In this document: piece after piece, positions 12,001 through 18,000 of the stretch | Position numbering within the stretch: position 1 is the stretch's first letter | Layout: each line of letters opens with the position of its first letter | DNA from: Escherichia phage P13374 | Direction: 5' to 3' (one strand) | Sequence record: NC_018846.1 | DNA: 60,894 nt | Made by a program: the position numbers

Positions 12001-15000
12001 ATTAACGGTTGGCCTTTATTGTTCAGGTAAACTTCTATTGCATCTGAGATAATGCGAATTTTTTCAATCAGTGAATGTGCGTAAAGTGCATTATTAACGT
12101 TCGCTGACGCCATGTAATAACGCCCGTTGTAAAGAATTGCTGTGCCGGGTTTAACGTCCTCGCGAGAAACTAATGCGGTTCCGTAGTGAGGTTTGAGCAT
12201 GACAAATCCTCCGGTTAATTAATCCAGATATTTAATTTAATCCCCGATATGTGGTCGGGGATGGGGTTAATTAAAGATTTACGTTGAAACCAAAGCGGGA
12301 AGACTTTTCTGATGTACGGGAAATATCCAGCAATTTACGGCGCATTTCTTCCGTCAGATGCTTGAAGGCGTTAAATTCGGCGACAGCGGCGTCAACGTTA
12401 TAGCCTTTGCTGTGTAGCTCATTGAGGATGCGCATAGTTGGGCTTGGCATATCGAAGAGCACGGAAGCATCAAGGCTGATAACCTTGCGATCAACATAGT
12501 TCATCGTGGCGTAGGGATGGTTATCTGAGAACCACGAGAGAGGGTAGTTGATAGATAGCGTTGATTCTGGAAGCTGAAGTTGTTCTGGGATTTTTTGACT
12601 GAAATAGCAGTCTTCCAGTTTTTCGAACACTTCCCACGCCCGATCGGTTTCGAGCATTTTTGCGTGACGGGCTGCGCCGCGTTCTGTCCAGAGGATGAGG
12701 GAGCGAACGTTACGGGCGATTTTCACAGAAGGTCTTAAAGACATGCTGTGCTTAAATTCCCGCAACTCCTCATTCTCAAGTAAAAAGTAGTGCTTACCGA
12801 TAACAAATCGTCCAGAATTCCGATTGAAATTTTTTCGGATGTAATCTGGTTCTGTGCCATATAAGCTGGCAAGAAGCTCTGTAGTCACCACAGGTATATT
12901 ACTAAATGAAATTATGGAGAGGGACTCCACGGAGATGGTTTTCATGCTTTGCGTCCTACTTGATATTTTGATTTACCCCTTTTGAGAGGGTGACCGGGCG
13001 CTCAAAACCGCAAGTAGTCGGCGGGCATATTCCCATTGCTGGTATTGTATTAGCCGCACGCCCGGTCATAAACCAAGAAGACTGGACACAAAAAAACCGC
13101 ATGTCTGTCGGGCGCGGTAACCGCTACTTGCTAAGGTGTTTTGAGCACCATGAGGCAGAATATATCCCCGTTAATGCAGCATTGTCAAACGATCTGTTCT
13201 TTAAAGACTTAACGAGAAGCCTTTTCGGGAATTTCGATCTGACAGTCTTGAAATATCCTGTAGCGTGCGGCGCATTTCTTCCGTCAGATGCTTGAAGGCG
13301 TTAAATTCGGCGACAGCGGCGTCAACGTTATAGCCTTTGCTGTGTAGCTCATTGAGGATGCGCATAGTTGGGCTTGGCATATCGAAGAGCACGGAAGCAT
13401 CAAGGCTGATAACCTTGCGATCAACATAGTTCATCGTGGCGTAGGGGTGATGCTCTGAAAACCACGACAAAGGGAAATTGATATTCATCGCAGGAGAAGA
13501 CAGGGCCAGTTGTTTCTGTTCCCATAGTTGTTTTTCCATGCGATCGAATTCAGCAATGTAGGCTTCCTTGAATGCAGCTGCTTTTTTGCCGGTGAAGCCC
13601 ATCACCAGAAAAACGAAGCCGTTTTTGGTGATTTGGTACATTGGGCGTTGTTCGCCTTTGGCGTCGGTGTAGGTAACGTCCTCAAAATTGAGGGCGTTAA
13701 ATTTCTCTGAGCATTCAATATTTGCAATGGCGCGCAATACGTTATCGTGTCGCTTGCAAAAATATTCGGCAACGGCAAAGGACGTAGTAACAGCGCGACC
13801 ATTGGAAATGGTGATTTCAGGTTGAGAAAGGACTGGGATAGTAGCCATAATGGCAGCCTCCTTGATTGGTGATTGATAACCACCGCTGGAGGTAGCAAGC
13901 TCGCTGGCGGTGGACTGTACAGGGTTGCTACAACTGGCAATCAAGGGAACCAGCCCGACCGAAGTCGGCCCCATACAGCCCACCATTGATAAGATGTGCG
14001 TGTATGTCGATACAAAAAAAGACGCTGGCGCGTCTGTATCGCCTCGATTGTCAGCGGGGTAGCAATCCCGACACCCGTTTTATGAGGTGTTCGCCAAATA
14101 TAGCCCCGACATCACACGCAGTCAATACCGTTCTTTCTCAGAAACGCTTTGGCGGTGCCGCCTGCACCCCAAAACATTCCCTGTATTGGTCAGCGCCAAC
14201 TTCCTGCCAGTGTTGCCCGTTCTCACGCCGTTCTCGCTCTCGCGCGGGGATACTCTCTCATCGACCGGATCGCACCCGATGATACAGCACGTTTACGTGT
14301 AGGGGTCTAAACAGGTCATTGACGCTGTAAAGCTCCAGATTGTTAAAGAGCATTTTGCGGCGGGTTAAGTCGCGCCGTACGACTGATTTATGTAGCCCTG
14401 TGTAAGGGCGCGATGTTTCTGGCTTGAAATAAATATAACTTGCGGTGATTTTCATGTAAATACCGTTGGTGCTTTTTAAGGGCGAGAAATTATTACTTAA
14501 CTGATTTTTAAAGTGATTTATTTTTTAAGGGGGCAGATAACAGGAGGGGATATGCAAAGAAAAACCCGGCGCATGGGCCGGGCTATTTATCTGGTCCTGT
14601 TCTCATTCAGTAGAGTAGGGGCCAAGAAATCGCACTCCGTTGAAGTGAATAAGATGAGAAGGTGCATCAGCCACCCATACCTCTGTTTCCCATGCGATTT
14701 CACCAAGATATCGCCCCATGATGGAGCGATTTGGAAAAGCGGTCACATAGACAAGTCCGGCTGTTGATCCGGCAAACAGCCTGGCAAGCTCAGCATGCCG
14801 CTTCCCATCAACCGGTCCATGACTGGTGACAGACTCAACCAGTAGCAGCCAGTTTTTCGCAGTAAAATGTAGCACCACATCTGGCATTTTACCGTGTGAA
14901 TCCACATCAACACCTAGCCCGGCCAGCAGTGGAGCGTCGAAGTAGCCCCACTTTTCGCCAGTGTCGCCAGCATAGACCAGCACGCTACCCGGAGCAAAAC

Positions 15001-18000
15001 GTGGGGCGAAGTCCTCTATTATGGCACGGATAAGTTCGCTGTGCTCGCCGGGACTGAGGGTTATTTGCTGGCCCGCAGCAATTTCAACAGGGATACGATT
15101 CTGTTCGCGCTCCTTAGCATAGCGGGTAACCAGCGTTTCACGCTCGGCTAAATAGGTTGCAAGGCTATCGTGCCATGCCGGGCTGCCGAAAGTGCGTAGC
15201 ATGGACAGAGCAGCAGGTTCGATCTGATAAACAGCCTTCGGGCTGTTCACTGGGCGATCGGGCTTGTCCGGATTGTAGAGGGCTACTCCAGCAGCGCAGA
15301 ACTGATGCATAGACTGGCGGCGGAATGTCTCACGAGTATTGGGTGCGTAGACCTTGCCGTAGTGCTCCCGAACCCAATTCATGATTGGTGTAATGCCCAC
15401 AAGCGGATTTTCCGCGTCGGCCCATGCTTTTCCCGGTGTGAGGTTCAGGAGTGCCAGCAAACACAAAGCAGAACGCTCATTCTGCTGCGCTCTGGGCAGG
15501 CCTAAGGATGCTATAATTTGCTGAGCGGCCTCAATATAATCATTTTGGTTGTTCATGCAGTCAGAGCTCCTAGCTTAGCGTCAATATGTTCTTGCGTGAG
15601 AGTTTCTTGTTGCATAGCCCACTTGCCAAGCTCTATCAGAGTGTCACGGCTTGGGTACTTAATCATCTTGAGGTCGGTTGCATTGACCTGTGTATGCCCG
15701 TTGAAGCGACGGAAATACTTATCCACTGCGGTAGTGTTCAGGAACACGGCCAAGCCACGGGCCAGCGCCTCGGGTAACCCATGTTTGTTCTCATGAAACA
15801 CGTTCATGTGATTTTCAAATCCCAACACTGAATACTCACTGAAGGTAGCAGGATCAACGACGCTTGCTACCACTCGGCGCTTTTCCTCCTTCGACGAGAA
15901 ACGACGCACCACACAATAAAAACCGTTCGGGTAAAGCCACTTTTCTGTCTCGTCGTTGCGCATGATTGCGTTGGGTTTCTTCAAACCTTCCACAGGCCAG
16001 ACAGTGCTACTCATACTCAAATGGCTCGGGTAGATCAGGGGAACAGTTCCTTCTTCTGGCATGCTGCGCAAATGAGCTTTCAGTCGGAAATCAACTATCG
16101 GTCCGGTCGATACCTTCACGCCAATATCAGCCAGCGAACATTGTACGGCAGATGATAACTCAATGGTGCTTTTCTCGAGCGTGGTCGGCACATGAATAAA
16201 CCGCTCCGAATCGTCCGGGTACACAATCTGGTCAAATGGGTGTTCGTAGGTGACTAGGTCAAAAAAGCTATCATCGGTCGAAGTTGTGACTGTAACAGCC
16301 TCCTGACGGCCTCCACGCTCCAGGCGGATGATAATATTTTCCTGCAACACATCGTCATCCCTGAAAGCTTTGCTACGTGATTCGAACAAATGAATATGGC
16401 GGATTGCTGCCCGCTCAAGTATGAAATTACGGAACGGACGGTAATACGGTCCGTTGCAGAAACTACGTGGGATTATGGCCACTATCTGCCCGCCAGGTGC
16501 AACCTCACCTACAGCCAGTGCAACAAAGGCGGAATACAGATTTACCGTCTCGATACCGACAGTGCGAAGAGCCTGCCGGTGGGCTGACTGGCTATTGATC
16601 TTCTTGTAAGGCGGATTAAGTATTGCATGGGTATAACCTCGATCCTGTAGACCTTCGGCGGTTGCCAGCTCAATATAATCCCCTTCGATGATGCGGGGCG
16701 TCACTCTCCTGTACCCGGTTAAGTGCTTCGCAAGGTGACCACACAGCTTTTTGTCGATTTCGTAGGCTGTTGCCTCGACAGACTCAAAGCCAAACTCGCC
16801 AACCAGCCAACGGTCGAGGAAGGCGCAAGACAGTGCGCCTAAACCAGCGCCTGCGTCCAGTAGACGGCAAGTTTTCATTGTGCTCGGTGGAAACAAGGAG
16901 GCCATAAAACGGGCCACGCCAGAAGGCGTCATGAACTGGCCGAACTCTGCTTTGTGTTTACGCGCGGTACGGGGAGACAGCTCGCGACGCACGCTGTCTG
17001 CGACGTCTAGCTTTTGAAGCATAACTAATCCTCTTTACGTGGCATGATGATGCCAACGTGCTTTTGACATCCTCCACATTCTTCAGGCGTGAAGGATGTC
17101 AAATCACTCTGTGAGCTCAATCAAAAGTCTCATCATTCCACTGCGATTTGATGACCTTTCCGACAAACTGGCAGTTTTCGTTACACTCAATCATGTCGAA
17201 TCGTGGGTTGAGCGGCTCCAGGTACGCTTTACCGCTCTCACGAATGAATCGTTTGAAGGTAAATTCATCGCCGTTCATTCGGGCCACGCAAAAATCGCCA
17301 TCCTCGATTTCCCGTTCAGGGTCAACGAGTATCAGCATACCTTCAGGGAAGCTGGGTTTACCACCCTGCGGTGCGGTCATTGAATGCCCCTTGACCTCCA
17401 GCCAGAACGACCTGTCACTGGCTTTTGTGGTGGTGGAGATCCATTTAATCGCATCTTTTGCGGTGTACGAAATATCATCCATTGAGAATGCGCCAGCTTG
17501 TACGCAGGAGAGTAACGGATATTCGTAAGCGGGGACACGAGTTAATGGCTCTTCAATTGCGAGCGCCATTTCTGCAATAGATTTTGCCAGGCTGGGACTG
17601 AAATCTCCGACCTTTACATTCAGTATCTTAGCAAGCTGTGCTGCGTGGCTGGCATTTATGGCGTTGATGCCAGCCATTAGCTGATTAACAGCGCTTTGGG
17701 TAACACCTAATTCATAGGCTAATGATTCCTGCGACAGGCCTAACTCTTTCTTTTTAGCGTTAAAAATACTTTTCAGACGCTTGGCGTCTTCCAGTTGCTC
17801 AGGGGTTAACGGTTTCTTTTTCATGTTCATACCATATCACCTTTGGTTATATGTAATGAAATATCTGCGGTGTTGACATTTTAATAACTGTGCGTAATGA
17901 TATGGGCATTTTGAAGGAGTCAGTTATGGCGATGAAAAAAGAGACCCTGGCTGATTACGTATACAGGTTCGGCCAAAAGAAAGCCGCTAAGGACTTTGGC

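Follow-up and report, generated by a model that had tools for sequence, protein, structure and literature searches.

The stretch of DNA analysed here (hereafter the window) is the 60,894-nucleotide sequence of Escherichia phage P13374 (NC_018846.1), and our subject is a pair of genes next to its cI repressor gene that encodes the EcoGIII type II restriction-modification (R-M) system. All genes of the unit lie on the minus strand. The cI gene (17117..17830) is situated directly upstream of the pair and encodes 237 amino acids with HTH_3 and Peptidase_S24 domains; identical database records label it cI or LexA family. After a gap of 94 bp follows the gene for the N6-adenine DNA methyltransferase M.EcoGIII (M; 15553..17022, 489 amino acids), and then the gene for R.EcoGIII (R; 14603..15556, 317 amino acids), a BsuBI/PstI-family type II endonuclease with an N-terminal helix-turn-helix (HTH) and a C-terminal nuclease domain. 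The stop codon of M and the start codon of R overlap by 4 bp in the sequence ATGA (15553..15556, minus strand), with a ribosome-binding site for R, AGGAG, at 15571..15567 (minus strand), an arrangement that predicts translational coupling of R to M. An intrinsic terminator (14553..14584, minus strand) closes the cI-M-R unit and is the positional analogue of tIMM in lambda; it consists of an 8-bp stem with six G-C pairs (14584..14563) and the T-run TTTTCTTT, and it is kept in prophages that have lost M. A first-pass annotation had described an NPPY-type N6-adenine methyltransferase and a BsuBI/PstI-like endonuclease downstream of cI on the same strand, with overlapping stop and start codons and an intrinsic terminator at the end of the unit, and each of these features was found where it had been placed.

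The protein comparisons agree with both enzyme assignments. M contains the S-adenosylmethionine motif (motif I) DAGAGLG at amino acids 56-62 (window 16857..16837) and NPPY at amino acids 136-139 (16617..16606), and matches were obtained to the Eco57I methylase domain of Pfam (3.3e-09) as well as to the PADLOC model MTase_II, the latter from end to end (residues 1-489, 5e-248). In R, both domains that mark membership of the BsuBI/PstI endonuclease family are present at full length, namely BsuBI_PstI_RE_N (residues 7-143, 1.2e-54) and BsuBI_PstI_RE (residues 155-307, 4.6e-61), and the PADLOC model REase_II matches at 1.6e-168. PstI and BsuBI have a published specificity for CTGCAG; they are alike to R in both Pfam domains and in the names BsuBI or PstI given in the records, a likeness set by domains and record names, and they differ in that the window copy sits on a temperate phage, inside its immunity region. 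The sequence of SdaI (PDB 2IXS) matches R over its full length (E 1.2e-77, R residues 8-315 against SdaI residues 14-322), and the two-domain fold of SdaI can therefore be transferred to R. SdaI recognises an 8-bp site that contains CTGCAG. The two enzymes differ at one motif position: residues 241-245 of R (window 14834-14848) read ESVTS, and the SdaI structure sequence reads EAVKS, so that the lysine of this motif is a threonine in R.EcoGIII, an enzyme reported to be active. No controller gene (a small HTH gene of the C-protein type) was found by M or R; the 94-bp gap is taken up by a hairpin and the relic of a recombinase gene, and M and R overlap by their 4 bp. Base composition (GC content 53.5% in R, 51.4% in M, 47.5% in cI and 50.2% in the whole window) was considered as a marker of the cassette and rejected, the values being without sharp contrast.

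The 3,801 bases from 14400 to 18200 are 100% identical to the corresponding DNA of E. coli O104:H4 C227-11 (NZ_CP011331.1), with the same annotated genes in the same order and with the same neighbours. The same stretch is 100% identical in phages P13803, P13363 and phiON-2011 at unchanged coordinates, in phage TL-2011c at shifted coordinates, and in the chromosomes of the O104:H4 strains 2011C-3493 and HUSEC2011. Judged by this identity to outbreak-lineage records, the window is essentially the Shiga toxin 2a (Stx2a) phage of the 2011 O104:H4 outbreak lineage. M and R are without any difference from the EcoGIII genes of C227-11; the pair beside cI is the EcoGIII type II R-M system, which was named, cloned and phenotyped earlier and is not new. 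The primary description of EcoGIII in C227-11 is that of Fang et al. 2012 (Nat Biotechnol). What we add are small additions: candidate operators, the exact borders of the cassette, a recombinase relic, a plasmid origin, and alternative occupants of the slot.

For specificity, activity in lysogens and defence we draw on published work. EcoGIII has been described as PstI-like, with CTGCAG as the site that it both methylates and cleaves, and as protective against other lambda-like phages (PMC6602927). The adenine of CTGCAG is methylated by M.EcoGIII cloned from C227-11, and R has been reported to be biochemically active; among 2,902 CTGCAG sites of an O145:H28 lysogen whose prophage has the same genes, 98.8% were methylated, and the count was 0 in a sister strain that lacks them (PMC3893438). 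In C227, too, CTGCAG is treated as the site on which an active R-M system of type II acts (PMC4490391). Cloned EcoGIII restricts plasmid transfer about 10^4-fold and does not cut CTGCAG when the A is modified (PMC4288162, PMC7736820). Since methylation was near-complete in uninduced cultures and lysogens exclude phages, both M and R are expressed in lysogens, a conclusion that is based on the literature. These reports also bear on what had been predicted from the sequence: the PstI-like specificity agrees with the CTGCAG reported for the identical genes (PMC6602927, PMC3893438), expression in lysogens with the near-complete methylation of CTGCAG in uninduced lysogens, and superinfection defence with the protection against lambda-like phages and the restriction of plasmids, while the methylome and the phage plating proposed as checks are, together with cloning of the genes, already in print, N6-methyladenine at CTGCAG having been published for the identical genes (PMC3893438). 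A "prophage rRNA methyltransferase" of phiPA2/phiPA8 (PMC10810198) was considered as a further report of M and rejected; that protein is gp5, an MT-A70 enzyme encoded elsewhere in the phage.

The same data decide whether the pair could be a decayed or silent remnant, with an orphan methylase and an inactive endonuclease. Such a reading could appeal to the change from EAVKS in SdaI to ESVTS in the nuclease domain of R, and to the decayed alleles that are present in other strains. Both reading frames are full length, however, the models match them end to end, and an identical R is reported to be biochemically active and to restrict phage and plasmids. The idea is thus already contradicted by published data and we regard it as extremely improbable.

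By the sites at its edges, the immunity region encloses the R-M pair, which is flanked by cI on one side and by the left operator and promoter (OL/pL) on the other, as rexAB is in lambda. On the right-operator (OR) side, an operator-like site, ATCACCTTTGGTTAT (17836..17850, plus strand), is located between cI and cro, and a PR-like sigma-70 promoter, TTGACA-17-AATGAT (17873..17901, plus strand), points toward cro. On the OL side there is an operator-like site, ATCCCCTCCTGTTAT (14537..14551, minus strand), and, just past the terminator, a leftward pL-like promoter, TTTACA-17-TATATT (14432..14460, minus strand), whose -10 region is overlapped by a second OL-like site, ATCACCGCAAGTTAT (14449..14435, minus strand). 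The motif ATCNCCNNNNGTTAT was derived by eye, by comparing the region beyond the terminator with the cI-cro gap, and its only exact matches in 60.9 kb are at 14435-14449, 14537-14551 and 17836-17850, all of them at edges of the immunity region. In F039-type phages the DNA from 14584 to 17528, which covers the stem of the terminator, both R-M genes and the C-terminal half of cI, retains 95.4% identity, and the segments 14439-14583 and 17529-18144 (the OL side on one hand; the N-terminal half of cI, OR and cro on the other) are replaced together. F039 has a different shared motif, AATAGCNAGACTAWT, which adjoins its own leftward and rightward promoters. The left-side sites are thus replaced together with the DNA-binding half of cI and behave as operators should, and we consider the three ATCNCCNNNNGTTAT sites putative cI operators. 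A comparison from 2015 noted the R-M system in this region and reported that no operators were identifiable for this phage type (PMC4587872). A reading frame of 65 amino acids at 14258-14455 (minus strand) has its ATG between the -35 and -10 elements of the pL-like promoter and is without a Pfam match. With the ATG upstream of the -10 element, the frame would be off the pL-like transcript from that start, and as drawn it is probably not a gene.

The analogy with the rexAB slot, which had been drawn in the first-pass annotation, gains from the operator-like motifs and the pL-like promoter directly past the terminator, and from the other cassettes that occupy the slot in relatives. Like rexA-rexB of lambda, the EcoGIII genes follow cI on the same strand, end at a terminator and lie just within the OL/pL side, and both systems exclude other phages from the lysogen. 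They differ in that EcoGIII restricts unmethylated DNA, whereas Rex is an abortive infection system; for EcoGIII we infer the co-transcription with cI. Neither M nor R showed homology to RexA or RexB, and searches against Pfam and NCBIfam gave only R-M families.

The boundaries of the pair reveal where it may have come from. At the protein level R is 94-95% identical to genes on plasmids of P. aeruginosa, Aeromonas, Citrobacter and Morganella. At the DNA level the cassette is 83-84.5% identical to the plasmid copies across M, R and the ribosome-binding region of M, with the same ATGA-type overlap, and plasmid copies are also found on Aeromonas qnrS2 plasmids. Homology to an IncP KPC plasmid of P. 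aeruginosa extends from 17063 to 14595 in the window (84.5% DNA identity); its start falls precisely on the 3' end of a hairpin behind cI, and it stops short of the terminator, 8 bp past the stop codon of R. On this plasmid M starts 9 bp after a co-oriented serine recombinase gene (956-1525 in L009). The C-terminus of the plasmid recombinase, ...LYKHVGVITPRQ, resembles KHVGIIMPRKED, a relic of 12 codons from the 3' end of a serine recombinase gene. In the window this relic (17025..17063, minus strand) is the 5' boundary of the captured cassette. The ribosome-binding site of M, AAGAGGA (17035..17029, minus strand), lies within the relic. The plasmid copies differ from the phage copy in what surrounds them: their upstream gene is a serine recombinase gene (or there is a rep intergenic region) where the phage has cI, and they have a 249-bp downstream gene that is absent in the phage. 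Since the relic matches the gene that precedes M-R on the plasmid, the phage cassette is, on this sequence evidence, one captured from a recombinase-M-R unit of plasmid or transposon type.

The transcription of M and R was deduced from the DNA ahead of M. No sigma-70-like promoter was found on the minus strand from 17830 to 17023, that is from the start of cI to M including the 94-bp gap. With no promoter-like site there and with relic coding sequence as the 5' edge of the cassette, read-through from cI would be the most economical source, and M and R are most likely transcribed by cI transcripts that read through the hairpin. This 16-bp hairpin just past the cI stop codon (17063..17103, minus strand) is without a U-tract. 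It is unusually stable (z = -3.6 for the 116-nt region, with none of 200 shuffles as stable), and its two ends are homology breakpoints, the one at 17103 being seen in a prophage with hicAB, the one at 17063 in the plasmid as well as the decayed alleles. The hairpin possibly attenuates, processes or stabilises the transcript. Across variants, no compensatory changes were found in the two intergenic hairpins. For the second of these a structural role was considered and is not needed; it is conserved because it lies inside the recombinase-gene relic. RNA sequencing, one of the checks proposed in the first-pass annotation, has reportedly been done already.

Alternatively, M and R could have a promoter of their own within the 3' portion of cI or around the hairpin, in which case the hairpin would end the cI transcript and expression would be independent of PRM. 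The very stable 16-bp hairpin does separate cI from M, and on small Aeromonas plasmids the pair is preceded by 220 bp of intergenic DNA without a co-oriented upstream gene, where a local promoter can serve. Against this stand the lack of any sigma-70-like site on the minus strand over 17830-17023, the missing U-tract of the hairpin, and the nature of the 39 bases directly upstream of M, which are coding sequence of the recombinase relic and not a promoter region. We consider a separate promoter rather unlikely, and read-through from cI is retained in what follows.

To place the cassette among its relatives, complete E. coli genomes and phage records were compared. Of 5,426 complete genomes of E. 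coli, 139 contain the R-M DNA, in each case in the chromosome, and 147 have DNA that matches the cI region. In a set of 50,697 phage records, members of this endonuclease family were found only within this group of Stx phages, with at least 95% identity. In three unrelated strains, ECOR13 (phage PhiR12_3), SCU-104 and JNEC-KY177, the same cI precedes a remnant of R that comprises just its final 100 codons (L002 3204-3506; L004 3524-3829; L006 4001-4303); about 160 bp take the place of the DNA corresponding to 14920-17062 in the window, which holds the whole of M and codons 1-213 of R. One shared junction in the three decayed prophages points to a single loss event that later spread. Strain 48, an E. 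coli isolate from deer whose cI is of F039 type, has a hicA-hicB toxin-antitoxin pair on the opposite strand in the slot from cI to OL, where the window has the R-M pair (L005 3013-3602). A wider proposal can be made from these comparisons: in this lineage of phages the interval from the cI stop codon to OL would be a site of exchange for addiction and defence cassettes, occupied in the window by EcoGIII, in the deer isolate by hicAB and in commensal strains by the decayed remainder of R, and EcoGIII would be a promoterless, plasmid-derived cassette expressed by cI transcripts that pass the conserved hairpin. This is a tentative proposal to which we give somewhat less than even weight. If it is true, the levels of restriction and methylation are tied to the lysogenic state, and the hairpin would set the ratio of cI to M and R.

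A further question is whether defence is the main selected role of EcoGIII. The pair could instead be a selfish cassette that works by addiction, at a cost to cells that lose the prophage, or owe its maintenance to CTGCAG methylation that rewires host expression, or both. In keeping with this, the same cassette is carried on plasmids of several genera, beside partition and toxin-antitoxin genes, and the hicAB toxin-antitoxin fills the same slot in a related prophage. Post-segregational killing has reportedly been established for several type II systems by the Kobayashi laboratory. About 1,900 genes change expression on removal of the EcoGIII system (PMC6602927). No killing-on-loss experiment for EcoGIII was found in the literature, however. 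A phage-cured derivative of C227-11 exists (named in PMC8065619) and prophages without M and without two thirds of R are in circulation in no fewer than three strains, so that any penalty on loss is not absolute, although the cured strain and the natural loss alleles neither prove nor exclude killing on loss. Moreover, it is the defence phenotypes that have been directly reported, and the roles are not mutually exclusive. A main role other than defence seems doubtful to us.

The window itself contains 12 CTGCAG sites. The first-pass annotation had listed three, of which 24841 is correct and 28348 and 31262 are one base off (28349 and 31263). Shuffled sequences contained 17.6 ± 4.1 sites, with 12 or more in 95 of 100 shuffles, and a Markov estimate gave 22.9; depletion of CTGCAG in the phage is at most mild. 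The first 20.9 kb are without CTGCAG, but the longest-gap test (P = 0.08) led us to reject this as a signal. Other GC-rich 6-bp palindromes are far rarer than the Markov estimates, with GCCGGC at 1 vs. 21.3, GGCGCC at 3 vs. 16.5 and CGGCCG at 0 vs. 4.3, and all three are much more depleted than the system's own target. The CTGCAG at 24841-24846 falls within the stx2A coding sequence (coordinates transferred from the phiON-2011 annotation, with a one-base offset).

Downstream of the pL-like promoter there are further features that may relate to immunity. Two antirepressor-like genes, of ORF6N type and Rha/Ash type (12271-12945 and 13201-13986), share a 234-bp direct repeat with 93.6% identity (12320-12553 and 13250-13483). 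NZ_CP011331.1, which is one assembly of C227-11, has only one copy, as do several other prophages, as if recombination between the repeats had merged the two. Ahead of the two genes, and downstream of the pL-like promoter, the minus strand has Rfam matches above the gathering score to isrK, C4 antisense RNA and sRNA-Xcc1 (14090-14015, 13990-13903 and 13067-12984). From sequence, the Rfam matches and the antirepressor-like genes look like tandem P1-style c4/ant immunity modules.

The proposed course of events combines published activities with steps that we infer. Expression of M and R would ride on the repressor transcript; M would be translated first, and R would follow by coupling at the ATGA, as the overlap suggests. 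According to the literature M methylates the adenine of CTGCAG on both strands and R cuts unmethylated CTGCAG, R being predicted to act as a two-domain enzyme with an HTH recognition domain and a nuclease domain, like SdaI. In the lysogen the chromosome and the prophage's own 12 sites remain protected, and incoming unmethylated phage or plasmid DNA is restricted, again on published grounds. The order of M before R may let methylation get under way first in a newly formed lysogen. A controller gene is absent, and the pair may penalise loss of the prophage.

Several points weigh against this account. The CTGCAG specificity and the phenotypes rest on papers that cite Fang et al. 2012. The promoter that drives M and R is deduced from sequence, and the strong hairpin that separates cI from M could prevent read-through and not merely dose it. 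The motif ATCNCCNNNNGTTAT was derived from the same three sites that it matches, and the count of its matches is partly circular. Nonetheless, we hold with high confidence to the account as a whole, in which the pair is the EcoGIII type II R-M system, acts at CTGCAG, occupies the rexAB-like slot of the immunity region, is active in the lysogen and is likely expressed by read-through from cI.

For the biology of these phages and their hosts, the larger consequences have already been published. EcoGIII arms Shiga-toxin lysogens, including the 2011 outbreak strain, against plasmids and other phages, and about 2,900 sites of the chromosome carry its methylation, which is reported to affect gene expression broadly. 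The minor additions made here are useful for designing experiments on the coupling of EcoGIII expression to cI.

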